Shown here piece by piece: positions 8-55,200 of a DNA stretch of 64,000 bases (positions are counted from its first letter, which is position 1; every line of letters begins with the position of its first letter). A program made the position numbers and the translations under genes. The notes under the pieces were generated by a model. It saw only the letters and a program-made list of their open reading frames with translations, ran no database searches and was not told the DNA's origin. The DNA is from an uncultured Candidatus Saccharibacteria bacterium. Its GTDB lineage: Bacteria; Patescibacteriota; Minisyncoccia; Phycocordibacterales; DATDWN01. Where the stretch lies: NCBI GenBank assembly GCA_964369145.1, contig CAYJEE010000001.1, positions 2,052-66,051 of the forward strand, given 5' to 3'.

Positions 8-277
8 CTAGTGGGTCATTTCGGGTAGAACCACTTGCCGCAGTTCTTCAATTTGACGGGACAACGCTTCTTCCCGTCTTCCGGCGCCGGTTAAGAGCGC
101 AATGATCATGTCCAGCTTGACGCTATCTCCTCCTTTTCCCGTGAGCACTTGCAGACGGCAGAAATCAGAGATGTTACGGGCGCCAGCGGCAGCGCATGCG
201 CTTTCGATTTGACCAAACTCCTCTTTGCTTACGCGAAAGTTGATGAGTTTATTACGTTGATTTGGTGGGCGGGGCAT
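8..277 (-). CDS. MobC-like / ribbon-helix-helix plasmid mobilisation accessory protein (89 aa), GC-richer than surroundings
   Basis: Motif RNKLINFRVSKEEFGQIESACAAAGARNISDFCR resembles the MobC/RHH relaxosome accessory family; codon GC visibly above window average. Confidence 0.4.
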   Translation of the reverse strand: MPRPPNQRNKLINFRVSKEEFGQIESACAAAGARNISDFCRLQVLTGKGGDSVKLDMIIALLTGAGRREEALSRQIEELRQVVLPEMTH

Positions 278-1866: not shown

Positions 1867-2134
1867 TTGACAAGATTTCTATACTATGCTATTATATATA
1901 CAGTCAGGCGAAAGAAGCCTGAAGTTCCTGGAAAAACTTTTCCCGCCCCATATCCTCACACACATCCTCCAGTAAACCCCCGACAGCATTTTTCTGCTTT
2001 GTATCTGCTCGCAAAAAGTTTTTCGTATTTGTATCCCGCGCCTCTGGTGCGGGATTTCTTTTTATATACTTCGAAACAAAAAAATGAAAGGGTAAACTAT
2101 ACAGAGCACTTGGTACGCATGATATAATCTATTC

Positions 2135-3106
2135 ATGAATACATCATCACCGATCAGAGTTGCAGTACTACGCGGAGGTCCTTCTGCAGAATACGATGTC
2201 TCATTGCGCACCGGAAGTGAAGTGTTGAAACATTTACCTCCTACATACAAAGGAATTGATATTTTAATTGATAAAGATGGTGTGTGGCATATGAACGGTA
2301 CACCAAAATCTCCTGATAAAATTTTCCCGCACATCGATATTGTGTGGAATGCACTCCATGGGAACTATGGTGAAGATGGGAAAATCCAACATATACTCGA
2401 AATGCATGGTATCCCACACACTGGTTCACCGGTATTGCCGAGTGCTCTGGGTGTAAATAAAATATTATCTAAAAACATTTTTGCAAAATACGGTATCCGT
2501 ACGCCTCACTCTATAGCTTTACACAAAGATGAGATGTCGAATGCAAAGATTCATGAAATCTTTACAACACTCCCGCATCCTGCAATCGTAAAACCAGCTT
2601 CAGGAGGATCATCGCTTGGGGTAAAAGTTGTGCAGACGATTCCCGAGCTCATCGCAGCGCTTGAAGAGGCTTTTGCATATGGAGAAAAAGTGGTGGTAGA
2701 AGAATACATCACTGGACGCGAAGCTACGTGTGGGATCATCTCAGGTTTTAGAGATGAGAGTTTGTATGCACTCCCCGTGCTTGAGGTAAAAAAGCCAGAA
2801 GGGCACACTCATCACACCTTTGATCATAAAATGGATGGAGGAGTCATGTTTGATCATCAGAGTTTGACCGCACTCGAAAGAGCAGAAGCAAAACGTGTGG
2901 CAATGCTTGCTCATCGCGCACTCGGACTTTCTCATTACTCACGCGCAGACATGATCGTGCATCCACGAAGAGGAGTTTTCCTTTTGGAAGTCAACAGTCA
3001 GCCGAGTCTCAAAGAGGATGGAGCTTTTACTCACGGTCTCGAACATATCGGAAGCTCACTATCTCATTTTCTGGATCATGTGTTGGGAAGAGCAGGGAAG
3101 AAGTAA
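2135..3106 (+). CDS. ddl: D-alanine--D-alanine ligase
   Basis: N-terminal IRVAVLRGGPSAEYDVSLRTG and an ATP-grasp layout typical of Ddl. Confidence 0.85.
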   Translation: MNTSSPIRVAVLRGGPSAEYDVSLRTGSEVLKHLPPTYKGIDILIDKDGVWHMNGTPKSPDKIFPHIDIVWNALHGNYGEDGKIQHILEMHGIPHTGSPVLPSALGVNKILSKNIFAKYGIRTPHSIALHKDEMSNAKIHEIFTTLPHPAIVKPASGGSSLGVKVVQTIPELIAALEEAFAYGEKVVVEEYITGREATCGIISGFRDESLYALPVLEVKKPEGHTHHTFDHKMDGGVMFDHQSLTALERAEAKRVAMLAHRALGLSHYSRADMIVHPRRGVFLLEVNSQPSLKEDGAFTHGLEHIGSSLSHFLDHVLGRAGKK

Positions 3107-3377
3107 TATTTTATAATATATAAAAAATGGCGCCTGCATCGTGCAAACGCCATCTTGTCCTTCGAGGGTTTACACACCCCAGAGGACTGAACTTCTTTCT
3201 GTTAAGGTCATCCGTAACCTCCTTTCAATAAAAGCATATCATATATTAAATTTATTGTCAATATATTGACAAATATTTGATATAGTCTATATTGGTCTCT
3301 TGTGCATATTTGTTTATATGCATAAGAAAGTCCCTGTTTAGGGCCTTACTTAAAAAATGTAAGAAAGGGGTTTCCTC

Positions 3378-4136
3378 TTGAAACTCATAGTTGTTCTTTT
3401 TATCATGCTGTTGGTCTCCAGCACCTCGGCCTTTACTCAGACGCTTTACTCAATCGTTTCGGGTACGACCAACACAAACAACATTTGCGCTGGAGCACTC
3501 GTGTCTGCCTACGGGAATTTCCCGGGGGTATCGGCTCAGTCAGTGAACCAGTCGACCAATGTTGGGGGTCTGCAGGTGCGGGTCAACGGGGTGAATGCTC
3601 CGATGAGCTATGTCTCGCAGGGTCAGATTAACTTTCAAGTGCCGTACGGCACCAGCTCAACTGCCGTCTTTCAGGTGGTTAAGCAGGGGCAAGGACCATG
3701 GTCTTCCCAGACTGTTTCTCGCGGGCTCAGTGCTGCGTGTCTCGGCGGTATGCCTTTCAATGGGCAACCTCTCGTGACCAACGCAATGACTGGCGCGATT
3801 GTGAGCTCTAGTCAACCTGTTGCGACGGGAACATTGCTGACCGTCTGGGTTGCTGGTGGTGGGCAGACAAATCCTGGTCAGTCGACTGGTGTTCCTGCTT
3901 CGGGAGTCGCATGGTATTCGTATCCGGTTTCGGTTACATGCCTTTCCGGATGTTACTCTGGACCAATTTACGTCCAGTACGCAGGTGCTGCACCGGGTTA
4001 TGTTGGGCTTGGGCAGATCACATTCGCTGTTCCTTCGGCCTCTCCTGGAATGCGTTCGTTGAACTTCCAGTCCGTTTATGGCCCTGGCCAAAACGTGGCT
4101 GGTTCCAGTTTTAACCTCTCTGTTACTGTTCAGTAG
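3378..4136 (+). CDS. secreted Gly/Ser/Thr-rich protein, TTG start, GC-richer
   Basis: signal peptide MKLIVVLFIMLLVSSTSAFT; low-complexity composition; higher GC than flanks. Confidence 0.5.
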   Translation: MKLIVVLFIMLLVSSTSAFTQTLYSIVSGTTNTNNICAGALVSAYGNFPGVSAQSVNQSTNVGGLQVRVNGVNAPMSYVSQGQINFQVPYGTSSTAVFQVVKQGQGPWSSQTVSRGLSAACLGGMPFNGQPLVTNAMTGAIVSSSQPVATGTLLTVWVAGGGQTNPGQSTGVPASGVAWYSYPVSVTCLSGCYSGPIYVQYAGAAPGYVGLGQITFAVPSASPGMRSLNFQSVYGPGQNVAGSSFNLSVTVQ

Positions 4137-4282
4137 CGAGTGAGGTAGAAAAAAATTCATAGTTACTTTCTAGTTGCTATGAACCCCGCGACGCAGTGTC
4201 GCGGGATTACCAAGTAAACATTGTTCTTTTGTTTCAGATCGTCCGCGCCGTTGTGCGTGGATTTTTCGTTGTAAAAATTTAA

Positions 4283-4651
4283 TTACAATGTAAACAAATA
4301 TATTCCCATGATAATAGCGATGATGCCGTAGATCATAAAAAATCGTTTTGATTTTTTAATTGCTATTTCACTGAGGAGTTGTGGTGCAAAGATGTATACG
4401 AGTCCTTTGAGTCCGACAAGCCATGCAAATGCAGTCACTATTGTTCTCCATGTTCCATCCCAGATATTATATTGGATGAGGTACATTGAGGAGAGAAAGA
4501 TGAGAATAACGCCCGTGAGGTAGATAATCGCCGGGTGATCAAAGAAATCTTTTAAAAGATGGGGGATACTCTTTCGTCTAAAGATCATAAAAAACCCGCT
4601 CATGATTAAATATACTGAAAGAATTTTTAATGTAATCAATGTGGTGTCCAT
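4283..4651 (-). CDS. membrane protein, 4 TM (122 aa)
   Basis: hydrophobic ORF with good coding look; no family recognised. Confidence 0.45.
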   Translation of the reverse strand: MDTTLITLKILSVYLIMSGFFMIFRRKSIPHLLKDFFDHPAIIYLTGVILIFLSSMYLIQYNIWDGTWRTIVTAFAWLVGLKGLVYIFAPQLLSEIAIKKSKRFFMIYGIIAIIMGIYLFTL

Positions 4652-4803: not shown

Positions 4804-5436
4804 CTAGAAGAACGAGTAGCGTATCCCGATACCGGGATAGCTGTTACCGGTCACATGGTGACCGATGATGCCGAACGATACTGGGCTGTTGCGAGTTGGT
4901 TTTACCATCAGCCAGTACTCGCCATACCCAGAACCATCGGGGAAGAAACGGCGGTAGCCTTCTCCCCATACCTCAATACTCTTCACTTTCTTTGAGTTTG
5001 TTGCACCGCCGACCAAAATGTTGTTGGGACGAATCCCAATAAATCGAGGTAGGGCAGTGACAAACAATCCAGCGAGGGGCTTTCTTAGTTTCGGGATGGC
5101 TTCAGTGACGTTAATCCGAGGACCGACCTGAAAGAAGCCGAGGTTGTGGGTAGGGAACCCTCCTGTCTCGGTTTGGACCGAGAACCATTTCATTTTTTGG
5201 TGTGGTGGTGTATACCACACCAAATGGTTGGTGAACGGCTTTTCTCCCGGCGCGGATTCGACGAATCCGAATCCGTTGATTTTTCCTCTCGAGGTGTTCA
5301 CACCCCAAGCGTATTGGGGGTAGAGCATTGGGCCCCGCGGTGTTGCGAAGCCTTCGGCCCAGGCATGGACGAAGGTTTTTGGTGCTTCCTGGGCGAATAC
5401 AGCCACACAGGCGAGTAATACTATGATTGCTTTCAA
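4804..5436 (-). CDS. secreted beta-rich protein ending in ...GIGIRYSFF (C-terminal Phe, OMP-like signature)
   Basis: signal peptide MKAIIVLLACVAVFAQ; alternating aromatic/hydrophilic strands; terminal F. Confidence 0.45.
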   Translation of the reverse strand: MKAIIVLLACVAVFAQEAPKTFVHAWAEGFATPRGPMLYPQYAWGVNTSRGKINGFGFVESAPGEKPFTNHLVWYTPPHQKMKWFSVQTETGGFPTHNLGFFQVGPRINVTEAIPKLRKPLAGLFVTALPRFIGIRPNNILVGGATNSKKVKSIEVWGEGYRRFFPDGSGYGEYWLMVKPTRNSPVSFGIIGHHVTGNSYPGIGIRYSFF

Positions 5437-5514: not shown

Positions 5515-5560
5515 GTTCGAGTCCTGATGCGAGCAATCCCCATTGCTCGCTTAGGGTCCA
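5515..5560 (+). repeat. inverted partial copy of the tRNA-Ala 3' portion (T-arm GTTCGAGTCCTG + acceptor TAGGGTCCA) interrupted by a 25-nt hairpin insert
   Basis: sequence identity to the reverse complement of 5596-5626 except for the GCGAGCAATCCCCATTGCTCGC insertion. Confidence 0.55.
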
Positions 5561-5595
5561 CAATAAAAAAGACGCCTCTCGGCGCTTTTTTATTG
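5561..5595. terminator. bidirectional terminator caataaaaaag-acgcc-tctc-ggcgc-ttttttattg
   Basis: palindromic A/T-flanked GC hairpin between convergent tRNA copy and tRNA-Ala. Confidence 0.5.
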
Positions 5596-5668
5596 TGGAC
5601 CCTACAGGACTCGAACCTGCCACCCCATCATTGCAAATGATGTGCTCTACCAGATGAGCTAAGGGCCC
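5596..5668 (-). tRNA. tRNA-Ala (anticodon TGC), 73 nt, G3:U70 present, CCA not encoded
   Basis: Reverse complement GGGCCCTTAGCTCATCTGGTAGAGCACATCATTTGCAATGATGGGGTGGCAGGTTCGAGTCCTGTAGGGTCCA folds as a cloverleaf; anticodon loop TTTGCAA. Confidence 0.9.
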
Positions 5669-5982
5669 GTTGTGTTATATTTTGTCGTAAACGATATCTA
5701 ATTGCAAATGATGGTCACTGATATTTTTCTGGTGAAAAATTCAGCGACCCCACCTCGGCTCGTCAGCCTCCGGTCTTGCGAAGTGATAAAATCACTTCTC
5801 ACTCCACCAGATGAGCTAAGGGCCCGTTGTGTTATATTTTGTCGTAAACGATATCTAATTGCAAATGATGGTCACTGATATTTTTCTGGTGAAAAATTCA
5901 GCGACCCCACCTCGGCTCGTCAGCCTCCGGTCTTGCGAAGTGATAAAATCACTTCTCACTCCACCAGATGAGCTAAGGGCCC
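5649..5982. repeat. 157-bp tandem direct repeat, 2.1 copies; each unit = first 20 nt of tRNA-Ala gene + 137-bp identical spacer
   Basis: accagatgagctaagggccc recurs at 5649, 5806 and 5963; the two spacers are identical as far as compared. Confidence 0.85.
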
Positions 5983-6104
5983 AATATCAATACCTTTATA
6001 TATTACCAAAACTATCTTAAAAATCAATGTCTATAATAATATTGTTGACATTATGCTTATATACTGTATGGTAATTCTAGATTGAAATCGAAAGGAAATA
6101 GAGG

Positions 6105-6563
6105 ATGAAAATTGAAGTGCATGTGGCGAGGATGGAACTCTACACTGATGGAGAGGTTAAGGTCGTTCAGGCCGAGGGTCCGACATACGAAGAGGCCTGT
6201 CAGGCACTGGTTCAGGAACTGAAAAATTATTTTCAACACCGTGTCTGTATTGGGGAGGTTGCAACTTCGGCAAGAGAACATGTGAAGATGATCCTTCCGG
6301 CGCGGCATCTTGTGGATTTTCCAGAAGAAATTCCTGAAGGTCACCAGCTTTTGATTTTTGAACGGGTTGACTATACTGGCCCGTATTCCTGGAATCTCTA
6401 CGTGCTTCCCTTTGGTGAGTATACAATCGCAAACCAAAAGGTGGTTCTTTCTCAAAATTACCCAACAAAAATCAGTAGCAACCATCACGTTAAATATTCA
6501 CTTCCTCAGGAAACTCGAGAATGGCTGGGTGGTGAGTGGCAGTACGTCGACAGTACTGACTAA
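6105..6563 (+). CDS. hypothetical protein (152 aa), GC-richer, SD-like agagg upstream
   Basis: clean ORF followed by hairpin+T terminator at about 6577-6612. Confidence 0.45.
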   Translation: MKIEVHVARMELYTDGEVKVVQAEGPTYEEACQALVQELKNYFQHRVCIGEVATSAREHVKMILPARHLVDFPEEIPEGHQLLIFERVDYTGPYSWNLYVLPFGEYTIANQKVVLSQNYPTKISSNHHVKYSLPQETREWLGGEWQYVDSTD

Positions 6564-7478: not shown

Positions 7479-8158
7479 TTGAACCGGTGTGTAATGAGGG
7501 TCCACAGTCCAACAAATCCGTCCCTTGCACGGATTTTTTTGCCTTCATGTTCAGTTCGAGGGTTGTAGGGGATTTGTATTTCTTTAATGTGTTGGTGTCG
7601 CCGGAGCAGTTTTGCGGTAATCTCGGCTTCAATTTCAAAACCATTTCTTTTCAAATCTAGACTCTGTGCGAGATCTCGAGGTACGATCTTGTAGCAGGTA
7701 TAAATATCAAAAAGTCTACTTCCATAGAGAAGGTTGCATGTGTGAGAAAGGATTGCATTTGCAATACGGTTCCAGATGTATCCCAGATTTCGTGAGCGCT
7801 TGCCATATACAACAGTCTGAGAGTCTTTGATTGAATCCCAGAGCATACGAAGCACCGCAGGGCTGTATTCAAGATCTGCATCTTGGATTGCAATGTAATC
7901 GCCAACAGATGCTGTGATACCTCGACGGATTGCATTACCTTTACCTTTGTTCTTTGTTTCTCTGATTATTTGCGTTTGAGAATTTTTTAAACCCTCAGTT
8001 ATTTTTCCGGTGCCATCAGTTGACCCATCGTCGACGACAATAATTTCATATGATGCATCCGTAAAAGCCTCTCGTACATTTTTTACGACAGAAGCCAAAG
8101 TGTTTTCTTCGTTGTATGCAGGGATGATGATAGAAAGCTTCATAGCGTCATTGTACAC
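7475..8158 (-). CDS. family 2 glycosyltransferase (dolichyl-phosphate/polyprenyl-phosphate sugar transferase-like)
   Basis: LSIIIPAYNEE...EIIVVDDGSTDGT is the GT-A DxD region. Confidence 0.8.
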   Translation of the reverse strand: MYNDAMKLSIIIPAYNEENTLASVVKNVREAFTDASYEIIVVDDGSTDGTGKITEGLKNSQTQIIRETKNKGKGNAIRRGITASVGDYIAIQDADLEYSPAVLRMLWDSIKDSQTVVYGKRSRNLGYIWNRIANAILSHTCNLLYGSRLFDIYTCYKIVPRDLAQSLDLKRNGFEIEAEITAKLLRRHQHIKEIQIPYNPRTEHEGKKIRARDGFVGLWTLITHRFN

Positions 8159-9707
8159 TAAACATACTTTGAGGAAGCTCGTACTGTGTGATCAGTGTAG
8201 TATTTTTTTCAGTGCGTTTGAGGAAGATGATGGTAAAGTCGTCAACATAGACCGGTGCCCACCCTGGATTTTTAATGAGCGAAATAAGAAATTGCTGTGC
8301 CCACGGAGTGCTATCAAGTCGGTAGAACCAGACTGCATTAAAATTATATTCTTTTGATTTTTCTTCCCACACCGCAGGGTTTTCTTGCATCGGTTTGTAG
8401 GTGTCGAAGAAAAATGACTCTGGGTACACCTCTGGTCTGTTGTCGACAAACACTCGCTCTTTGCTTTCAGGAGTAAAGAGGGTGAAGATGAGGAGCCCGC
8501 CGATGTCATAGTTTGAAAAGAAGGGTCCGTTAATATTGTTTTTTTGTACAAAAAGTGCAGAGTCTGCATTGCGAGGATAGAGTCCAAAGCCCCATCGAGA
8601 AGAGCCTAGAAGACGGTCGTTGAACCGGACACAAATAACACAAAGAAGGAAAAAAGAAAGAAAGAGTGAAGCGATGAGTCTGTTCTGTCGCGTATCATCG
8701 TCGGTTGTGGGTGTGAAAAGTGTAGCGAGGAGGTGGGCGAGAAAAGGGAGCAATACAAGGCCGAAAAGTGAGAGGTGTCTAATGCCAAAAAAGCTGAGTC
8801 CTCCAAATGCAAGTGTCATGATACCGAGTGCAAACGGAAATGTTTTGAATTCTTTTTGAATAAAGAAAACGAGACTGGTAATGACTGCGATGAGTGCAGA
8901 GAGCTTCCACCACAAAAAGTTTGGATTGATAAAATTGAGTTTCTGTAGAAACGTGATTGATTGGTTTTCGGCTACCATGTATCCATAATTTTCAAAAATT
9001 CGGAAAGGATAGAGTGCGCCAGAAAGTCCATAAGGACTCACGAGTAGTCCGAGAGCACAAAAGAGTGTGAGTGAGAAAAATACTTTCACTTTCTCCCAGT
9101 CTTTTTGGATGAGACCTTCGCAGAGAAATGTGCCGACGATAAGCGGAGCAAAGATTGCATAGATATGGAGGTTGATCCAGAGTACAGAAAGTAAAGGGAG
9201 GAAGTAAAGGTATTGCTTTTTGAGTTTATTTTCAGAAAATCGAACAAGAAGAAAAATAAATACGGCGATAAAAAGATAGCTTAGGCCTTCAGGGCGAATC
9301 TCGCTTCGTTCGGCGATAAGTGGTATGAGAAAAAGAGATAAAGGAATACTTATAAAAAGAGGTGTGCTTCTGGAGATGAGGAAAAAGATGGCAAGAAACG
9401 CAGCGATGAGTGTGAGGATGTATGCGAGCGAGAGTCCAGTCCATCCAAAAAAGCTATACGTCAGATAGGCGATAATGCCGTATCCCCAGTGATGGTTGAT
9501 AAATGTATAGTCGGGAAACGTAAAAGAAAAAAAGTTGGTGTGGAGGAGTGCGGAGCGAGAAACTCCGTATTCGGTGGCATGCAAAAAAACATCACCGTTT
9601 TTAATATGTCGCCCGATATCTGCTGCAGGGAGATTGATTTTTTGAACTAAAAATAATCCAAGAAAACCAGAAAGAATTAGCGCGGCAACGAAGATGCTCT
9701 TTTTCAT
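8148..9707 (-). CDS. polytopic membrane protein, GT-C-like (ArnT/PMT/YfhO-type) partner of the GT2
   Basis: more than 10 TM segments; overlaps the GT2 stop by about 10 nt, suggesting an operon. Confidence 0.5.
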   Translation of the reverse strand: MKKSIFVAALILSGFLGLFLVQKINLPAADIGRHIKNGDVFLHATEYGVSRSALLHTNFFSFTFPDYTFINHHWGYGIIAYLTYSFFGWTGLSLAYILTLIAAFLAIFFLISRSTPLFISIPLSLFLIPLIAERSEIRPEGLSYLFIAVFIFLLVRFSENKLKKQYLYFLPLLSVLWINLHIYAIFAPLIVGTFLCEGLIQKDWEKVKVFFSLTLFCALGLLVSPYGLSGALYPFRIFENYGYMVAENQSITFLQKLNFINPNFLWWKLSALIAVITSLVFFIQKEFKTFPFALGIMTLAFGGLSFFGIRHLSLFGLVLLPFLAHLLATLFTPTTDDDTRQNRLIASLFLSFFLLCVICVRFNDRLLGSSRWGFGLYPRNADSALFVQKNNINGPFFSNYDIGGLLIFTLFTPESKERVFVDNRPEVYPESFFFDTYKPMQENPAVWEEKSKEYNFNAVWFYRLDSTPWAQQFLISLIKNPGWAPVYVDDFTIIFLKRTEKNTTLITQYELPQSMFSVQ

Positions 9708-22732: not shown

Positions 22733-22881
22733 ATTTTCAAACCCTTACATATGTTTTTTGGAGCACGCATAAATTTCTGCTGAAATTTTGCTCAGTCTCG
22801 GCTACCCGCCTTGCGAAGTCTCCAAAAAATATATGTAAGGGTTTTCTGGCTACTTACTATAAGTATGCTATAAATAAAGTA

Positions 22882-29567: not shown

Positions 29568-30149
29568 TTATTCACCTTTGAAGTAGGTGAAGCGAAGACC
29601 GAGCAGGGCATTGGTGCGCCCTTTCTCGTCCCAGGTAATAGTGGGACGTATAGAAGGTGTCCACCTGCCGATTGGGTTTAGACGATATTCTGCCCGCACG
29701 CCGTGACCAAGGAAGGCCTGGCTGTGGGTGCCGACAGACCAACGTTCGCTGAGTTTTACGTCAGTCAGGGTAAGATACCAGTAACCAGTCACCCCTTTGT
29801 CTTCGTAGATGACGAAGACGTAGCACCGACCCTTATTGGCGTACAGGTATGACCCAATACGCATTTTGCTGGTGGTCTGCTCAACTCCGCCACCGACTCC
29901 GACTTGGAGCCAGCTTGTGGGTTTGGCATAACCACCCACGTAGGCTTGACGATAGTTTGTTCCTATCTGCCCCCAGCCAAAGAGGCCAGTGTGTTTGGTG
30001 AGGCTTTGTTGTGCCCACACCGTATTTGTCTGGCTGTCTGCCCCTGCACTTTTGAAGGTGCTGTACGATTCAGTAAAAATGAATGTCTCAGCGTTTGTTT
30101 TTTGGCAAAAAAACAAACAAAAAACGAACAAGAATATGAAGGTTCGCAT
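29568..30149 (-). CDS. secreted beta-barrel-like protein (193 aa)
   Basis: signal peptide; amphipathic beta pattern ...LLGLRFTYF. Confidence 0.4.
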   Translation of the reverse strand: MRTFIFLFVFCLFFCQKTNAETFIFTESYSTFKSAGADSQTNTVWAQQSLTKHTGLFGWGQIGTNYRQAYVGGYAKPTSWLQVGVGGGVEQTTSKMRIGSYLYANKGRCYVFVIYEDKGVTGYWYLTLTDVKLSERWSVGTHSQAFLGHGVRAEYRLNPIGRWTPSIRPTITWDEKGRTNALLGLRFTYFKGE

Positions 30150-45568: not shown

Positions 45569-46051
45569 ATGAAAAAATTTTTATACATTATACCTGGATG
45601 GGAAGAAACCTGTCGGCGTAAACCCTACAAACAATTGAAAATTGTTGCAGAAAAAAAAGGTTACAAAGTGGTATCTATAAAAGTCGATTGGAAGAAACCC
45701 TTATCTGGTCAGCTTTTTGTTGTAGAAAAAGAAGCAATTGTTTTTGGTTTTTCTCTTGGCGCTATACTAGGATGGCTTGTGGCACAAAAGTACCCTTGCA
45801 AACATTTAATTTTAGCATCTATGACTCCGCATAGCAGTTTCAAAGATCCTAAAATTAAAAAACTATTGATTGAAATAACTGGCGCTACGTTTGTCTTTGA
45901 TATCAATGCTAATCTTAAGAAAAATCATCGAGCAGAAAATCAAACTATAATTTACGGGGATCAGGAAGAAGAAAAAGCTGATATTTTAGTTACCAACACT
46001 CAACATGAACTTACCTCTAACTATATAAAGGTAATTGAGAAGCTTTTGTAA
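45569..46051 (+). CDS. small alpha/beta-hydrolase-fold protein
   Basis: GFSLG nucleophile elbow. Confidence 0.45.
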   Translation: MKKFLYIIPGWEETCRRKPYKQLKIVAEKKGYKVVSIKVDWKKPLSGQLFVVEKEAIVFGFSLGAILGWLVAQKYPCKHLILASMTPHSSFKDPKIKKLLIEITGATFVFDINANLKKNHRAENQTIIYGDQEEEKADILVTNTQHELTSNYIKVIEKLL

Positions 46052-46256: not shown

Positions 46257-47090
46257 ATGCGCCCCACCAATCGTTTTGCGATCGTTACTTTTTTGGTTGC
46301 TTTGATGTTCTGTGCAACCACGCCCGCAACCGCCCAGTTTTTGCCCGGTAACGAACCAGTTGGGGTTTACCCCCAACCCGGACCCTACCAGAACCCCGTC
46401 GCGGTGAGTCTCGTCGAAAATGGGGGCACTGTTGCCCTCAAGGTCCAACTGACCTACAGCCGTACCTGCATCGGGATATACTCCGCGTTCGTCCAGCTCG
46501 AAAGGGAGGTGTCCGGCAATTGGATTGGGCAAGGCGCTCAGGTACCGGTCCAGCTCGGACGTTTCGGCCGAGGTCCACTCGACAAAACACTCCGTACGGC
46601 GGCGGTCTTCACTCCGCCAGATGGAGGAGGGTTTGCGACCGGTGACTACAGGCTCAAGATCTCACCCTGGCTCTTTACGGGTGACGGGTGCCCGGTGTCG
46701 CAATACATAACCCACATCGAAACCCCTTTTCTCCACATCGGCGCCGGCTTCAACGGCAGGCTGTCGAGTGTGGGAAAAACCAGTATACCATCTCTCAACG
46801 ATGGTAAGCTGGAATTCCAGGCAATTTTGGTTAGTCGTACCAGACTCACCATTTTCCAAGAATTTGGTTCCGAAAAGGTAGTGGGGCTCTCCGAGGACTA
46901 CCCGGCAGGAAACACGAGCATCAAGACGAATCTCCATCCGGAATTTCGTCCTGGTCTGCCCATTAAGGTGCATATCCTTGATCTGGAGTCTGGCGACTCG
47001 ACCGTCGCCACGCTCTTCGAGCCAGCACCGAATGTTCGTTTTAATGCCATCCCTCGGAATACCGAGGGTGGCCAACCGGAGTGGCAATAG
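46257..47090 (+). CDS. secreted hypothetical protein, GC-richer, strong AAGGAG SD
   Basis: signal peptide ...LVALMFCATTPATAQ; TTGACA-N16-TAGAGT promoter-like and AAGGAG 8 nt upstream. Confidence 0.5.
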   Translation: MRPTNRFAIVTFLVALMFCATTPATAQFLPGNEPVGVYPQPGPYQNPVAVSLVENGGTVALKVQLTYSRTCIGIYSAFVQLEREVSGNWIGQGAQVPVQLGRFGRGPLDKTLRTAAVFTPPDGGGFATGDYRLKISPWLFTGDGCPVSQYITHIETPFLHIGAGFNGRLSSVGKTSIPSLNDGKLEFQAILVSRTRLTIFQEFGSEKVVGLSEDYPAGNTSIKTNLHPEFRPGLPIKVHILDLESGDSTVATLFEPAPNVRFNAIPRNTEGGQPEWQ

Positions 47091-47216: not shown

Positions 47217-47723
47217 ATGGAAACAACTAAAAAGTCACTTTTAATTTTTCTCGGTTTACTAATTGTTGGAGGGAGTGCGTACGGTACATTTTATCTTTTA
47301 AAAAAATATATTAGTCGCACAGAGAATGAACCACTCGTAACCATGGATCAGCCAGCAAGCTCGACACCTGTTATTTCTGGTTTTGAACAGAATTTGCACA
47401 ACGAGGTTCCGTCAGTGTTACCAAAAGATGTATTGTTTGAAAAAAATGTGACCGTCGTGGAAAGCTTTACAGTGAAAAATGCTCCTGGTACACAATATAC
47501 ATATAGGTATATCTCAAAACTTTCTTTTGGGGAAAACTATTCTTATTTTTTTAAAACACTTCGTAATGCTGGCTGGGAAACAAAAACTGTCACTCGTACT
47601 GATAACGACTGGTTTATGTTTTTTGCTAAACCAAAGCAAGAGTTGAATATTTCATATTCTTTTAATAAAGAAACGAAGGTAGGTATTATAGATATTACAT
47701 TCTTACAGAAAAACAATGAATAA
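47217..47723 (+). CDS. membrane-anchored hypothetical protein
   Basis: N-terminal TM anchor. Confidence 0.4.
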   Translation: METTKKSLLIFLGLLIVGGSAYGTFYLLKKYISRTENEPLVTMDQPASSTPVISGFEQNLHNEVPSVLPKDVLFEKNVTVVESFTVKNAPGTQYTYRYISKLSFGENYSYFFKTLRNAGWETKTVTRTDNDWFMFFAKPKQELNISYSFNKETKVGIIDITFLQKNNE

Positions 47724-50691: not shown

Positions 50692-51240
50692 TTGGGTTTT
50701 TTCTTTAGGGTTAAACCACCCTTTATTCCAGACACGTCAGAATTACTACTTAAAAAACATCTTATTTTAAACTTTACTGCTATTAGTTTGTTTATGGTCT
50801 TCTCGACTGTTGCTGGAGTTCATACTCCAGTCACCGTTACAGAAATTCCCCAGACAGAGATTCAGATAAAAAGTGAAAATCTCAAAAAAGAGAATATTGC
50901 AAAGAAAATGTCGACCGAAGAGTATGTGAGAAATCACTTCTCGGACACACCTATCCTTGCTGAAATCGCACGATGTGAGTCTCAGTTTCGTCAGTTTGAT
51001 AAAAAGACTGGTGAAGTATTGCGAGGTGTAGTAAATAACAAAGATGTGGGAGTGATGCAGGTCAACGAGTATTATCACTTGGAGACTGCAGAAAAAGCCA
51101 ACATCAACATCTATACACTCGAAGGAAACCTTGAATACGCCCGAAAGCTCTATAAGCAATTCGGTACCGATCCATGGAATTCATCGAAACCTTGTTGGGG
51201 TAAACATCTACAACAGCTCGCTGTTGAAGTGAAAGCCTAA
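50692..51240 (+). CDS. secreted protein with transglycosylase/Rpf-like lysozyme-fold domain
   Basis: ARCESQF...VGVMQVNEYYH...; signal/TM at N-terminus. Confidence 0.45.
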   Translation: MGFFFRVKPPFIPDTSELLLKKHLILNFTAISLFMVFSTVAGVHTPVTVTEIPQTEIQIKSENLKKENIAKKMSTEEYVRNHFSDTPILAEIARCESQFRQFDKKTGEVLRGVVNNKDVGVMQVNEYYHLETAEKANINIYTLEGNLEYARKLYKQFGTDPWNSSKPCWGKHLQQLAVEVKA

Positions 51241-51343
51241 TACAAACTTAAAACAAAAGCTCCTGTAATGGGAGTTTTTGTTTTGTATAAAAATATCCCC
51301 ACCAAAGGATTTTGCTCGGGTGGGGAAATACGAAGAGGGATAT

Positions 51344-51823
51344 TCATCCTTGTTTCTTTAGGAGTTCTCGAATTACGTGATGGAGCTGGGTAAACCCATC
51401 AAGTCCCTTTTGCACAATACGAACCATAGGATCCTTCAGGATCTCATTGGGAAGTTCTTCTCCCAGCTCGCCGTTTCTGTGGGTGTGGATGATGATGGGG
51501 ATATAGCACCCATCTTCACGAAGTTTATTGATCAAGTGTACAGATGTTCCGTTCATATAGAGAGGGTCGCATTGGTTCAAGGATGGGATCTGCGCGACAA
51601 TTCTTTCATATGCATCACCACACTCAGGATCATCCAGTGAAGGGTCCGTAAGAGGAAAATCGTATTCCATTACCAAGACCCTTAGATCCGGTTTGGCCGG
51701 TAGGAAATCTGCAAGTGTGTAATACACGTCAACAGATGCATCAAAGGCTTTTCTTAGAGCCTCTGCAATCTGTAATGCTTCACCAGGAAGAAAGTTGTCA
51801 ATAACCGCAATTTTTATGTTCAT
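51344..51823 (-). CDS. hypothetical protein with flavodoxin/receiver-like fold (no phospho-Asp signature)
   Basis: MNIKIAVIDN start with GGAG SD; alternating beta-alpha pattern. Confidence 0.4.
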   Translation of the reverse strand: MNIKIAVIDNFLPGEALQIAEALRKAFDASVDVYYTLADFLPAKPDLRVLVMEYDFPLTDPSLDDPECGDAYERIVAQIPSLNQCDPLYMNGTSVHLINKLREDGCYIPIIIHTHRNGELGEELPNEILKDPMVRIVQKGLDGFTQLHHVIRELLKKQG

Positions 51824-51860
51824 GGTTGCTCCTAAGTTATTTATAGCATTTAGGAGACCA

Positions 51861-52010
51861 AAGTAAAGCATGTCGCACTACAAGAGTACTAATGTATTAC
51901 TAAGGCCCCTATGCAGGGGACCTAAGTAATACATGTCGCACCACAAGAGTACTAGTTAGTATCTAACGAGGGGATGAACCCCTCGAAGATACTAATGTCG
52001 CACAATATAT
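51861..52010. repeat. about 63-bp tandem degenerate repeat (2.5 units), each unit = AAGTAA..CATGTCGCAC.ACAAGAGTACTA motif + GC hairpin (CCCCT..AGGGG or GAGGGG..CCCCTC)
   Basis: units start at 51861, 51924 and 51986. Confidence 0.5.
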
Positions 52011-52175
52011 CTTTTGTACATGCTCGTACGAGGAGGCTTGGGCTTTTAATTGAATCATTTAAAATTTTAGAATCCCAAATTGATATATTTATATAAAAAA
52101 ATTCCCACTCTCCCCTTGAGGTAGGATTCATTTTTGTTTCTCTTTTTATATACCTTTTTTACTTTTATCTCTTAT

Positions 52176-52225
52176 TTTACTTCTCTTTAAAAATCCATAT
52201 TCCCAGTAGGGAAGTCCCCTGCCCT
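52176..52225 (+). promoter_or_regulatory. 48-bp element tttacttct(c)tttaaaaatcc(a)tattcccagtagggaagtcccctgccct, copy A
   Basis: near-identical to 55631-55678 (copy B). Confidence 0.6.
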
Positions 52226-52268
52226 TTTTCTCCATTCTTCTTATTAATTTGATATAATATATGTCTAT

Positions 52269-55200
52269 ATGATACGTAGAGTTATATTAAAATTATTTTT
52301 GGTAACAAGTACTTTTATGTTTTGCTGCGGGATTACATTTCCGTACGTTGGTGTACTAGAAGCTGCAGATGCGCTGATTATTTCTAATATTGGAGTAGAT
52401 AGTGTTTCCTACACATCTGTGCGTATTCAATGGAATACAGATATACCCGCTTCATTGTCTCGAGTAAAATATGACACTGTAGCAACAGAAGAGCCATTTA
52501 CAAACGGTACAGCTAACAAACTTAGTAATACTAGTACAATTCATGGATATACTCTTGGTGGTCTTGCGCCAAATACACTTTACAATTTTAAAGTGTGTTC
52601 AACGGTAAATTCAATCGAAACATGTAGCCCCACTCAGAATTTCACTACAACAGCTGCACCTTCAAATCGTTTTTCTCCGCCAACACTTCCAAACTCTGCT
52701 ACGTTGTCTTCTATGCCTACGATAAACGGTACTACACACACTGTAGCAGCTGATTGTAGTGATTTGCAGATAAAAATAAATACTGCCGCAGCAACGTCCG
52801 GCTCATTGAATCATCAAATTCTTATTCCTCCTACTGCTCTTTGTAAAGGTAATTATGAGCTTCCGTCTCGAGCTGGTACGGGTTGGATTGTAGTCCGTTC
52901 TGCGGCAAGTGATGCCCAGCTTCCTCCGGAAGGTACCCGTGTAGGCCTTAGTTATGCGCCTGTTATGCCCACTATTTACGGGCTAGTTGAAGGTGAGACA
53001 CATTTACAATCAACTATTTTTACAGAGAATCCAACTTCTAAATGGAGATTTGTTGGTGTTCAGATTAAAGGAAGTGCAGGGCGACGTGGATCAGCGGTTC
53101 ATCTTGGACGCGGAGTATCAACAGATATCATTTTTGATAGAGATATTTTTGATATATCAGGGGATACTACATATACCGTAAGAAATGAAGGTGTCCGCAA
53201 TATTGTTGCACATTCATATATCCATCATGTAAAAACAGGCTCTCTCGCAGTGGCAATTGGTCTGACGAACTCACAATATGCTCTGATTGATAACAACTAT
53301 ATCAATGCTCCTGGTATTAGCATTTTTGGTGAAGAAGGAGGAGGAAATCTACCGCCAGCTTCGGATATTACAATCACTCGAAACTTTTTTGAATGGGATA
53401 GTGTGAACAAAACAAATACAATAGTAAGACATCAATTAGAATTTAAATCAGGGGAAAGAATTCTCATTAGGGGTAATATCTTTAAAGACTCATGGACTGG
53501 CGGAATTACTGGTGGCATGGCACAAGTAATACTTTTCTTTCCAAGAGCAGGTTGGAGTGGTTCCATACGAAATTCATTAAATTATATTGCTGACGTGACT
53601 ATAAAAGATAATGTTCTTATTAATACTGCTGGCGGAATTGGCTTAGTTGGATCTGAATCGGCTGGAGTAGCTTCTGACGTAGCTTCAACTAAACGTTTTC
53701 TCATTAAGAACAATATTTTTTATAAGTTAAATGGTTATAATGGCGCTCCCGGTAATGCAGTAGCAGGATCTCCTTTTTATATTGCAGGAGCAATTGAAGA
53801 TGTAGTGATTGATCACAATACGATATATGATCCAAGAGGACTGTTTCCTGCTACTATTTGGTTTCTTGAAAACGTGGGTGCTGGTTTAAAATTAACCAAT
53901 AACATTATTACACAAAATTATACGAGTAGTATTGGTGGCTTTTACAAAAATACAGATTATCCAGGTCAGCTTCCAGTAGTAACGAACGGTAGCGCGTTTT
54001 CAACAATTGGCGGATCAGTGCGTGCAGCACCAAATGTAGACCCTACTCTTTTGGTACAAGGTAATCTTATTCTTCCTGGGGTTACTGACACTAGCTCAGA
54101 ATCAGCGTACTCAAATCCTTCTTCTTTCTATTCTCTTGCGAGCTGTACTACCTACTGGTCTGGCTTTACAAATAATGCTTGTGCGGGTAATATTTCTACG
54201 CTTACAGCAAACTCAGTAACTGCATCAGTTGGTTTTGCTAATACGTCTACATTCTCTGGTTTATATTTAGCATCTGGTCCATACAAAAATAGTGCTTCGG
54301 ATGGAGCAGATCCTGGAGTTGATATAAATAATTTAAATGCTCAAGTATCAAATACTATGACCGGCGGTTATGTTCCCCCTCCCCCCTCCGACACCACTCC
54401 CCCTGTCTTTTCTAATATTTCAGCCGGCACAATCACCACTGACTCAGTGATGGTCACCTGGACAACAAACGAATCCTCTGACACTCAGGTAGAATACGGA
54501 CTCACTGCAAGCTATGGTTCGTCTTCAACATTAAATGCAACACTCGGATCATCTCACAGCGTACCCCTTACATCACTGACTCCAAACACCCTATATCATT
54601 ATCGTGTAAAATCTAGAGACGGTGCAGGCAACCAAGCGATTTCCGCAGATCAAACCTTCACAACACGTGCTGTCGTAGCGACAGTGGTAGATCCGACATT
54701 AAATGTAGTCACAAAAGATTTCGGTAGTCTTCCGGTTGGTTCATCTACTCAACCATTCATGTTTTCAATCAACAATCCAAACAGTTCTTTTGTTGGAGTC
54801 AGTGCTGTGGCAGTAACGGGTGATTTTTCAATCACTACAAACTACTGTACTTCCGGTATGCAACCTTCTACTCACTGTGACATATATGTTGCTTTTAACC
54901 CCTCTACAAGTGGAACACGAACAGGTACTCTCATCATCACTCTTACAGGTGCTTCTACAAACACACTCTCTGTCACACTTGCCGGTACAGGAACAGCAGT
55001 CAACACACCAGAAGACCCTCCAATCCTTCCTCCACCTCCAGTTATCACACCCCCTCCTGTAGTCACTCCTCCTATCATTCCTCCTCCTCAAAAGATACCT
55101 CCACCAGGAATCATCATCACCAAAACTCTTGCTCGAGGAATGACTTCTCCCGAGATTATCATTCTTCAAACCCATCTCAAACAAATTGGTTTGTTTGAGA

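Follow-up and report, generated by a model that had tools for sequence, protein, structure and literature searches.

Tandem duplication of a putative tRNA-Ala leader cassette that carries a dispersed three-hairpin element of Patescibacteria

Modular, structured intergenic repeats are known from several bacteria, and include the REP/BIME sequences of E. coli, the pneumococcal BOX, the Correia elements of Neisseria and the RPE of Rickettsia. Other mobile elements target stem-loops: group IIC introns lie after terminators, and insertions of the IS110/IS1111 type enter REPs. Larger integrative elements recombine within tRNA identity and rebuild the tRNA. Patescibacteria have tiny genomes and little non-coding DNA. 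From this same phylum, group I introns have been described as structured RNA insertions that are tied to tRNA genes and were overlooked by standard annotation (PMC13011429).

Comparison of these systems with a tRNA-Ala locus in a stretch of 64,000 nucleotides (the window) from a Parcubacteria/Zambryskiibacteriota-like genome of Patescibacteria provides insights on a structured element of about 90 nt that lies in front of the tRNA gene. Like REP/BIME, BOX, Correia and RPE sequences, the element is short, non-coding and multi-copy, lies in intergenic regions between housekeeping genes, is strongly folded and modular, is sometimes tandem or nested, and has copies without an adjacent transposase. 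It differs from all four in its three hairpins with a conserved GGA/GA internal loop and a GACG loop, in the lack of terminal inverted repeats, in strand-specific covariation, in recurrent fusion to tRNA end fragments, in having one copy fixed and constrained in a tRNA leader, and in its host phylum, the Patescibacteria. A REP-associated transposase (RAYT) was not identified. With the stem-loop-targeting elements it shares the placement of many family members, judged by eye, at the 3' side or arm of a hairpin; this is a resemblance only. The element is about 90 nt long and has no reverse transcriptase or transposase. To the group I introns it has no similarity. It sits after the D arm of a decayed tRNA copy and not at position 35/36 of a working tRNA, and Rfam gives no Intron_gpI match on it; splicing is not needed at the cassette because an intact tRNA follows. 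Rfam did find Intron_gpI in the 16S gene of L030, one of the loci from relatives and metagenome contigs (L numbers) used for comparison.

The features of the locus are collected in Table 1. ARAGORN and Rfam both call a single tRNA-Ala(TGC), which is identical to that of L011 (74/74). An earlier note on this DNA had described the first 20 nt of the tRNA and its upstream sequence as tandemly duplicated, and TRF and a repeat search bear this out: the array has a period of 157 bp, ~2.15-2.2 copies, 99-100% identity and 0 indels, and matches itself over 177 nt at 100%. The repeated 5' segment of the tRNA is 24 nt long and occurs three times (starts 5645, 5802 and 5959) with one mismatch, the tRNA having CTCTACC and both upstream copies CTCCACC. 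The resulting G21 variant is also present in L020, L024 and L027. The 20-mer GGGCCCTTAGCTCATCTGGT is observed three times where shuffles predict 0. Between the copies of the tRNA 5' end lie 133 bp of non-coding DNA, and two small plus-strand ORFs in the repeat (58 and 53 aa) were judged to be by-products of the repeat. The anticodon arm is copied as well: 13 nt of it, ATTGCAAATGATG, recur in each unit (at 5701 and 5858) as an exact repeat of tRNA positions 5630-5642, with homologous relics in L011, L020 and L026. These anticodon-arm copies had been missed by the earlier note.

Table 1 Features of the tRNA-Ala locus and a further element copy, in window coordinates
Feature	Position	Strand	Details
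Accessory gene, GC-rich	3378-4136	+	252 aa; weak TIG-domain match; absent from relatives' syntenic loci
Accessory gene, GC-rich	4804-5436	-	210 aa; signal-peptide-like N terminus; downstream of tRNA
Inverted copy of tRNA T-loop and acceptor 3' strand	5515-5560	+	25-nt hairpin insert 5527-5551
Palindrome around tRNA terminator	5552-5604		Arms 5552-5571 / 5585-5604; stem 5572-5585; T runs on both strands
tRNA-Ala(TGC)	5595-5668	-	Intact; G3:U70; CCA not encoded; ARAGORN; Rfam tRNA 62.9 bits
Tandem array	5645-5982	-	157-bp units 5645-5801 and 5802-5958, then terminal 24-nt copy 5959-5982
Proximal copy of 24-nt direct repeat	5645-5668	-	First 24 nt of tRNA-Ala
AT-rich spacer, 32 nt	5669-5700	-	From relic to next GGGCCC start; second copy 5826-5857; fast-evolving
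Relic of tRNA anticodon stem and loop, ATCATTTGCAAT	5701-5712	-	Directly after element; second copy 5858-5869
Structured element, proximal copy	5713-5802	-	90 nt; covariance models R1/R2: 100.1/98.2 bits; covariation
Pseudo-tRNA 5' fragment, middle copy, GGGCCCTTAGCTCATCTGGTGGAG	5802-5825	-	G21, against A21 in tRNA
Structured element, distal copy	5870-5959	-	Identical to proximal copy
Pseudo-tRNA 5' fragment, distal copy	5959-5982	-	Directly downstream of conserved promoter-like block
Putative promoter of whole unit	6000-6027	-	TTGATT 6027-6022, 16 nt, TAATAT 6005-6000; read from sequence
Accessory ORF	6105-6563	+	152 aa; no Pfam match; absent from L008; ordinary composition
Third family member, degenerate	22761-22857	-	Outer stem ~24 bp; between yceG and mnmA; R2, filters off: 26.1 bits, E=1e-4

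Read on the minus strand, the proximal copy of the element consists of GTGAG (5802-5798), hairpin Pa (5797-5781), CGCAAG (5780-5775), hairpin Pcore (5774-5752) with the GGA/GA internal loop and the GACG loop, a single G (5751) and the AT-rich hairpin Pb (5750-5713). The unit folds on the strand of the tRNA with z=-5.0. Across aligned copies 96% of cells are paired, compared with 37-48% in slid controls, and compensatory changes occur in 31 of the 32 pairs, values that 0 of 500 shuffles reached; the apparent conservation and pairing are partly built in, because the first 12 copies were fetched by an exact core pattern and the larger alignments were fitted to the model. G-U and U-G cells number 59 against 8 for A-C and C-A, and the fold is therefore specific to the strand of the tRNA. 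Such a strand-specific fold could equally form in single-stranded DNA.

Constraint on the element is seen best in the comparison with L011 (Ca. Zambryskiibacteriota, Ddl 77% identical). The element is identical at 82 of 90 positions (91%) and the pseudo-5' fragment at 20 of 23, compared with 18 of 32 for the spacer (56%) and 51 of 120 for the four-fold sites of ddl (42%). The element is constrained in place, because its identity stands against a spacer and four-fold sites that are far more diverged. It is likely functional as well, since the 91% identity has been kept in the leader of a tRNA while neighbouring neutral sites are near saturation, and since the genomes are compact. High identity of the element across distant genomes might also reflect recent horizontal spread; the diverged spacer argues against this for the pair of the window and L011 only.

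Several described folds were considered and rejected. Hairpin Pb would be longer if the anticodon relic paired with GAGGUGG, but the changes in L011 break this pairing and do not compensate it. The CUGACGAG of the window copy recalls a hammerhead ribozyme, but the corresponding sequence in other members is GCGACGG or ACGACGG, neither the GAAA nor the cleavage-site part is there, and Rfam gives no match. The tandem G-A pairs of a box C/D motif or classic kink-turn are present, but the bulge has 1 nt in place of 3 and the family does not conserve the 'UGA'.

The element belongs to a family of dispersed, multi-copy, modular and often nested intergenic repeats of Patescibacteria. A 24-nt core pattern led to 15 metagenome contigs, and model R1 gave 46 matches at E<=1, some of them with different core sequences, of which 26 are at E<=1e-6. 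Up to five copies share one 9-kb contig (L032) and several occur in each of L019, L022 and L025, while the window holds the two array copies and one degenerate copy. All 29 matches checked are intergenic by crude ORF calls; three of these overlap short ORFs on the opposite strand, which are probably spurious. The flanking genes that were scanned are housekeeping genes (tsaE, pilB, ruvB, yebC, nusB) or have no Pfam match, and a search of 10 flanking ORFs for a partner protein returned no transposase. Some members are antisense to both neighbouring genes; every tRNA-adjacent element shares the orientation of the tRNA. By eye, many members lie just 3' of a hairpin or within its 3' arm, and the hairpins that host them include a REP-like palindrome, the tRNA terminator, the D arm and the loops of other copies. 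A REP-like hairpin, TGTCATYCYSG, accompanies the element elsewhere and is absent from the window.

Rfam 15, with its models of tRNA-like sequences, tmRNA, group I/II introns, hammerhead and other ribozymes, T-boxes and CRISPR repeats, passes only the tRNA in the window (the best other models score 12-18 bits against thresholds of 44-80 bits) and has no match on any element in 13 loci. A full-text literature search found no description of this repeat family. Hallmarks of a MITE are absent, as the ends of the element, GTGAG... and ...GTGACC (or ...TTGGAT), are not inverted and the flanks have no constant target-site duplication. No mobilising protein was found for the family, which may spread as a non-autonomous element that favours the 3' side of hairpins.

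At the tRNA-Ala gene the element is part of a cassette (tRNA-Ala 1-24, element, anticodon relic) that is also present in L011, L020/L031, L024, L026/L029 and L027, and L030 has an analogous cassette built on tRNA-Ile; the metagenome loci were chosen because they contain the element and are not a sample for cassette frequency in relatives. L011 has exactly one cassette in the same place. In L008 (Ddl 91% identical) the cassette is absent and the promoter-like block directly adjoins the tRNA. The ancestral cassette would have lain between the promoter-like block and the tRNA as an incomplete, decayed tRNA-Ala copy (positions 1-24 and ~28-39) that the ~90-nt element interrupts after the D arm and that is followed by the fast-evolving AT-rich spacer. 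It may be viewed as an old and selectively maintained leader of the tRNA-Ala gene. The promoter-like block is found upstream of the distal fragment copy and is conserved in L008, L011 and L020; the site is below the threshold of the promoter scan, and the promoter there is putative. From this position, the cassette would be transcribed as a 5' leader of 157-314 nt that is removed by RNase P.

The basis for the variable number of cassettes can then be proposed. The units are near-identical and head-to-tail, the 24-nt repeat stands at every junction, and copy number varies between samples and relatives (two units in the window, one in some samples, one in L011 and none in L008). These features are shared with tandem duplication by slipped-strand events or unequal exchange, from which we noted no difference and which is proposed for the amplification step only. 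The most likely route is slippage, or unequal exchange, at the 24-nt repeats. Direct repeats of the first 24 nt of the tRNA, 157 bp apart, would allow either process to add a unit; the same exchange could delete the cassette with the tRNA unharmed, as may be compared with L008 (by loss or original absence), and an integrase would not be required for gain or for loss. Similar duplications are present on either side of the tRNA of L020. The two-copy state is recent and is polymorphic between samples. We lean towards reading the locus as an old, conserved leader cassette that was recently amplified two-fold, and not as an integrase scar.

Each 157-bp unit might instead be a miniature integrative element, a tiny circular or transformed DNA that integrated independently by recombining in the 24-nt tRNA identity and rebuilding the tRNA. 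The layout [A][B][A] is what a single crossover in A would produce, arrays with one, two or no units exist, in analogous cassettes flanking direct repeats accompany 5' fragments of tRNA-Ile or 3' fragments of tRNA-His, -Ser and -Val, and the element family is dispersed and nested elsewhere. But the two units of the window are identical, for which slippage is the simpler account, and the near-neutral divergence of the spacer between the window and L011, at unchanged position, points to vertical descent of one old insertion. No circle, recombinase, plasmid or viral copy was seen, and phage, plasmid and viral searches gave no matches. We regard independent integration as unlikely.

The 3' end of the tRNA presents a second anchored structure. 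It had been claimed that an inverted 3' copy with a 25-nt hairpin insert faces the gene across a palindromic terminator, and this proved exact: the copy consists of GTTCGAGTCCTG (5515-5526), the insert ATGCGAGCAATCCCCATTGCTCGCT (5527-5551) and TAGGGTCCA (5552-5560), and the two arms of the palindrome are complementary at 20 of 20 positions around a terminator-like hairpin. Together with tRNA positions 5595-5616 and the terminator, the inverted copy gives a Y-shaped fold (z=-14.3), and the same fold is found at six tRNA-Ala loci (z -9.5 to -14.3). The copy is conserved and covaries with the acceptor stem of the tRNA in L008, L009, L011, L013 and L020, tracking it through the pairs GGACCCT/AGGGTCC and GGACCGT/ACGGTCC. 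Scores above background were obtained for inverted copies of the tRNA 3' end downstream of tRNA-His, tRNA-Ser and tRNA-Ile, and for a direct copy at tRNA-His, -Ser and -Arg and, among tRNA-Ala genes, at those of L009 and L020. At tRNA-Arg and tRNA-Val, short copies in both orientations were noted by eye only. The inverted fragment is best read as the far arm of a conserved Y palindrome that encloses the tRNA terminator; this arrangement recurs at other tRNAs, joined to elements of the Pcore/Pb type, and at some of them a direct copy of the 3' end closes it.

With palindromes and elements at tRNA 3' ends and cassettes at 5' ends, both ends of tRNAs therefore seem to anchor small, non-coding structured elements. 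A simple read-through RNA role at the 3' sites is argued against, because the first hairpin there is the tRNA's own terminator. A tmRNA or a split or permuted tRNA, made of the 5' decoy and the opposite-strand 3' fragment, was also rejected: ARAGORN and Rfam make no such call, the acceptor strand has no conserved 5' partner, and in L008 the 3' fragment persists although the 5' cassette is absent. For a plus-strand gene ending at the shared terminator, conserved acceptor pairing was not found, and its upstream part is replaced in the window by the promoter of ORF 4804-5436 (TTGACA 5484-5479, TATAAA 5462-5457), which takes the place of the relatives' content after the inverted copy.

The tRNA-Ala sits in a variable spot with atypical neighbour genes. 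Of three flanking genes said to be GC-richer than the core, two stand out among 58 ORFs (3378-4136, GC 0.536, z=2.8; 4804-5436, 0.521, z=2.5), and 6105-6563 does not (0.46, z=0.95). All three are without counterpart in the syntenic loci of the close relatives L007, L008 and L009, where the surrounding genes are conserved, and L008 has different genes in the same slot. Conserved synteny with similar composition is thus not what we find, since the three ORFs are absent in relatives and two are GC outliers. The genes uvrC, ddl, glycosyltransferase and G6PD were identified by Pfam matches on identical Logan contigs.

Such variable gene content on either side of the tRNA, with two GC-rich genes specific to the window, is the part of the earlier reading as a remnant of an integration or excision hotspot that stands. 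On that reading genomic islands integrated at tRNA-Ala and were excised repeatedly, and the partial tRNA copies are what remains of attL/attR; as at tRNA-gene attachment sites, partial copies flank inserted DNA next to an intact tRNA and variable neighbouring genes. Relatives offer some further matter: in L008 and L009 a degenerate direct copy of the tRNA 3' end, seen by eye in an unscored reading, bounds a non-coding block of ~165 nt after the tRNA, and in L013 one more inverted 3' copy lies at a distance of 2.7 kb. The integrase scar itself is not supported. In contrast to an attachment site, the tandem repeat is made from the tRNA 5' end, with 133 bp of non-coding DNA between copies, and the 3' copy is inverted and not direct; a search with an 18-mer at <=3 mismatches for att-like direct 3'-end repeats matched only the tRNA itself in the window. 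As had been stated, an integrase did not turn up: Pfam scans of unannotated and accessory ORFs at 1-24 kb and of the two GC-rich outliers gave no integrase domain and no tyrosine or serine recombinase, and further left, where a search had been suggested, uvrA lies immediately beyond the window. Both tRNA-fragment features are old, being present, conserved and constrained also in relatives with Ddl only 44-77% identical, and L011 and L026 carry the same fragments with no island next to the tRNA. Att-site scars are, in our view, very unlikely to account for the locus.

It is similarly improbable that the unit carries the tRNA promoter and that its duplication raises or tunes tRNA-Ala expression. 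TATAAC does stand 5 nt before GGGCCC at the end of each unit, and hexamers like a -10 occur at the same place in other genomes. However, the promoter scan called no sigma-70-like site in the units, they have no -35 element at workable spacing, the spacer is their least conserved part, and a promoter in the upstream unit would transcribe a decoy fragment and no tRNA. The idea of multiple promoter copies is likewise not supported; the conserved promoter-like block, shared with the cassette-free L008, lies upstream of the distal copy.

That the assembler created the second unit is scarcely credible. Metagenome assemblers do mishandle tandem repeats, and a third Logan sample is assembled straight through one unit. 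But independent Logan assemblies of two samples both stop precisely at the 30-mer closing the 24-nt repeat, where the graph can branch only if two units or more are present (and the two-copy state is for this reason not an artefact). In a one-unit genome no k-mer would run on from the C-variant 24-mer into a unit, and the middle copy has the upstream-type variant.

An amplified leader cassette raises the question of what the element is. One tentative and somewhat doubtful answer is a new class of small structured nucleic acid. In some genomes it would proliferate non-autonomously, inserting at tRNA ends and on the 3' side of hairpins and taking along, or copying, part of the target; in the lineage of the window, a domesticated copy, fused to a decoy of the acceptor/D-arm of tRNA-Ala and to the anticodon relic, would be a conserved leader RNA that senses or competes with tRNA-Ala or its processing enzymes and so controls maturation of tRNA-Ala(UGC). 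The loop of the anticodon relic, UUUGCAA, holds a self-complementary UGCA. The tRNA-Ala(UGC) at this locus is the only one seen in the window.

Whatever its role, the element marks out a repeat family that is unannotated, is missed by standard tools (Rfam, ARAGORN) and causes assemblies to break at tRNA genes. Not every partial tRNA repeat is the footprint of an integrase, and here such repeats would serve as built-in direct repeats for recombinase-free gain and loss of a cassette. The family is a possible handle on genome dynamics, strain variation and maybe tRNA regulation in uncultured CPR bacteria.

The single tRNA-Ala(TGC) gene is preceded on its upstream side (higher coordinates) by a 157-bp unit repeated head-to-tail (5645-5982, 2.15 copies, 99-100% identity), with the boundary of the array lying within the tRNA gene itself. 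The first 24 nt of the gene are present again twice as decoy fragments, with a single change (G21 for A21), and every unit holds a 13-nt copy of the anticodon arm. The earlier note had described the repeat, the tRNA fragments and the palindrome accurately, and its observation is confirmed. The array was also checked in three runs of a single study, whose Logan assemblies include the locus. The contigs of two of the three runs begin exactly at the 30-mer that closes the upstream-type 24-mer, a de Bruijn branch, while the contig of the third runs unbroken from tRNA-Ala through one unit into the flank. As such a branch requires at least two units and the third run has one, the two-copy array is real and its length varies within the population.

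Features of the tRNA-Ala locus and their conservation in L011, a Ca. Zambryskiibacteriota relative
Feature	Coordinates	Strand	Identical, window vs L011	Remarks
tRNA-Ala(TGC)	5595-5668	-	74/74	single tRNA gene
Decoy 5' fragment	5802-5825; 5959-5982		20/23	
Structured element	5713-5802; 5870-5959	-	82/90	
Spacer within cassette unit			18/32	
Promoter-like block	TTGATT 6027-6022; TAATAT 6005-6000	-		upstream of distal decoy
Degenerate family member	22761-22857	-		CGCAAG, reduced core, Pb hairpin with AGCA loop
ddl, four-fold degenerate sites	2135-3106 (gene)		51/120	

Searching metagenome contigs with a 24-nt pattern drawn from the conserved stretch of the unit brought up 15 of them, and all 15 present the same layout in the direction of the tRNA: GUGAG, the variable hairpin Pa, CGCAAG, the core hairpin Pcore (internal loop GGA/GA, loop GACG), G, and Pb, an AT-rich hairpin whose loop is of AGCA type. 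A covariance model of this element gave 46 matches at E<=1 and 26 at E<=1e-6 in the 290 kb searched, in which Pcore stays paired through the variants GGCU/AGCC, GGAC/GUCC, GCGC/GCGC and AGAC/GUCU. In the 46-match alignment 96% of cells are paired (37-48% in slid controls) and 31 of 32 pairs are changed on both sides, figures to be read with the knowledge that the first copies were fetched by the exact core pattern and that the alignment is fitted to the model. The excess of G-U (59) over A-C (8) assigns the fold to a single strand, that of the tRNA. Run over the window without filters, the model finds no member besides the two array copies and a degenerate one, which lies in the gap separating yceG from mnmA, antisense to both genes, inside an outer stem of ~24 bp. 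The element matched no family in Rfam 15 and nothing in viral, phage or plasmid sequences, and full-text literature searches yielded no account of the family.

Elsewhere, all 29 copies checked are intergenic by crude ORF calls; the scanned genes beside them are housekeeping genes or lack a Pfam match, and the element faces them either way. Up to five copies occur in one 9-kb contig, and nesting and tandems are frequent, with one copy between Pcore and Pb, or inside the Pb loop, of another. The commonest host site is a REP-like palindrome (TGTCATCCTCGC...): in repeat-rich contigs many copies sit within its 3' arm, and inspection suggests a preference of the family for the 3' side of hairpins. 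The palindrome itself (TGTCATCCTCGC, loop, GCGAGGATGACA, and variants) occurs in contigs L019 (e.g. 4249-4511), L023, L030 and L032, and reaches very high abundance in certain Patescibacteria contigs (13 half-site pattern matches in 11 kb); the window has none. Neither a transposase nor terminal inverted repeats nor a fixed target duplication was found for the family. The repeat-rich contig L030 also carries a 16S rRNA gene (1917-4270) with a group I intron (2989-3401, 83.5 bits) and, just 3' of it (4512-4580), a borderline group II intron D1-D4 match (35.2 bits, threshold 35); group II introns have been reported absent from Patescibacteria (PMC13011429).

Beside tRNAs (Ala, Ile, Ser, His, Val) the element always takes the orientation of the tRNA. 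In the 5' type, the element splits a copy of the tRNA 5' end, after which come a spacer and the intact tRNA, as at tRNA-Ala in the window, L011, L020/L031, L024, L026/L029 and L027, and at tRNA-Ile in L030. The 3' type runs from the tRNA through its terminator and an inverted 3'-end copy to Pcore/Pb. As judged by eye, the block is closed at tRNA-His, -Ser and -Val by a direct repeat, either of the tRNA end or of the start of the terminator, and a direct 3'-end copy scores over background at tRNA-His, -Ser and -Arg. The element is a variation on known structured intergenic repeats, unusual in its conserved fusion to tRNA fragments.

On the 3' side of tRNA-Ala, the terminator-like hairpin sits in a 20/20 palindrome (5552-5571 and 5585-5604), past which lies an inverted copy of the T loop and acceptor 3' strand (5515-5560), broken by an exact 25-nt hairpin. 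In six tRNA-Ala loci the stretch that begins at the T arm and ends with the inverted copy takes on a common Y-shaped fold (z -9.5 to -14.3). Its stem is of 12 bp (GUUCGAGUCCUG paired with CAGGACUCGAAC), its long arm comprises the acceptor 3' strand, trailer and terminator, and its side hairpin (7-10 bp) is fixed in place and variable in sequence. Lineage-specific acceptor-stem changes are mirrored in the inverted copy. By eye, the relatives L008 and L009 retain a degenerate direct repeat of the 3' end of the tRNA past this block; in place of the distal part, the window has a promoter and the gene 4804-5436. In contig L020, the block made up of tRNA 3' end, terminator and inverted copy is duplicated in tandem over ~166 nt (8040-8300), its direct 3'-end copies lying at 8088-8113 and 8254-8279, and the 5' cassette contains an 86-nt duplication (7744-7902) that L024 lacks; tRNA-Ala arrays are thus dynamic on both sides in the L020 lineage. 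L013 has a second near-perfect inverted 3'-end copy (TTCGAGTCCTGTACGGTCC, 9146-9171) 2.7 kb downstream of the tRNA, which might bound an inverted or island segment.

The earlier note had proposed the remnant of an integrase hotspot, of which the variable neighbourhood stands but the reading of the repeats as integrase scars does not. The locus is flanked on the left by uvrA (just beyond the window edge), a small NikA-like gene, uvrC and ddl, and on the right by a glycosyltransferase, a large membrane protein, G6PD, YceG, LeuRS and others. The ORFs scanned yielded no recombinase domain. Relatives identified through Ddl are Patescibacteria MAGs labelled Parcubacteria, Zambryskiibacteriota or Saccharibacteria. 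ORFs 3378-4136, 4804-5436 and 6105-6563 have no counterpart at the syntenic loci of L007, L008 and L009, where their neighbours are present, and L008 has different small genes in the same slot, so that tRNA-Ala does lie in a variable spot. The three had been called GC-rich; the first two are outliers (z=2.8 and 2.5), but 6105-6563 is not. The 210-aa protein of 4804-5436 has 38 homologues in varying contexts, the few with a named source being hypothetical proteins of Patescibacteria or unclassified bacterial MAGs. The NikA-like gene (8-277, minus strand, between uvrA and uvrC) encodes a small ribbon-helix-helix protein with a Pfam match to this mobilisation protein; since homologues occupy the equivalent place in L007 and L011, it is no marker of a local mobile element. 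Further GC-rich outlier ORFs without Pfam match are 29568-30149 (minus strand, GC 0.505, z=2.1) and 46257-47090 (plus strand, GC 0.560, z=3.4), with unusually AT-rich ORFs on their flanks (45569-46051 and 47217-47723). Cumulative GC skew climbs steadily from 1 to ~53 kb and then drops; this turn (~51000-54000) could be a switch of the replication-terminus type or a contig join. Linkage of ddl (D-Ala-D-Ala ligase) and tRNA-Ala is seen in the window and in L012, L013, L020 and L026, persists at a Ddl identity of just 44-47%, and in several genomes places tRNA-Ala directly 3' of ddl on the same strand.

L011 (Ddl 77% identical) has one cassette, positioned as in the window, whereas L008 (Ddl 91%) has none and its promoter-like block, conserved in all three, adjoins tRNA-Ala directly. 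Judged from the aligned sequences, the window cassette is old and constrained: a selfish relic would be expected to decay at the pace of the spacer, and recent transfer of the unit is disfavored because it would have brought a similar spacer along. Gene conversion is not simply overwriting the decoy, as the decoys of L020, L024, L027 and the window share G21 where the real tRNAs retain A21. The distant relative L012 has a decoy 5' fragment (6258-6280) 50 nt upstream of its tRNA-Ala (starts 73 nt apart) with no intact element; this decoy carries its own tRNA's variant (G7), which suggests concerted evolution or recurrent duplication.

The most convincing reading of the array is that an ancient leader cassette was recently amplified. 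The 24-nt direct repeats would let slippage or unequal exchange add units, and would equally let the cassette be lost cleanly, as in L008. With the promoter-like block lying ahead of the distal decoy, the cassette probably forms a long 5' leader in the transcript, which RNase P would remove. The constrained element and decoy might yield a processed small RNA, act as a competitor or sensor while tRNA-Ala matures, or serve to bind a protein.
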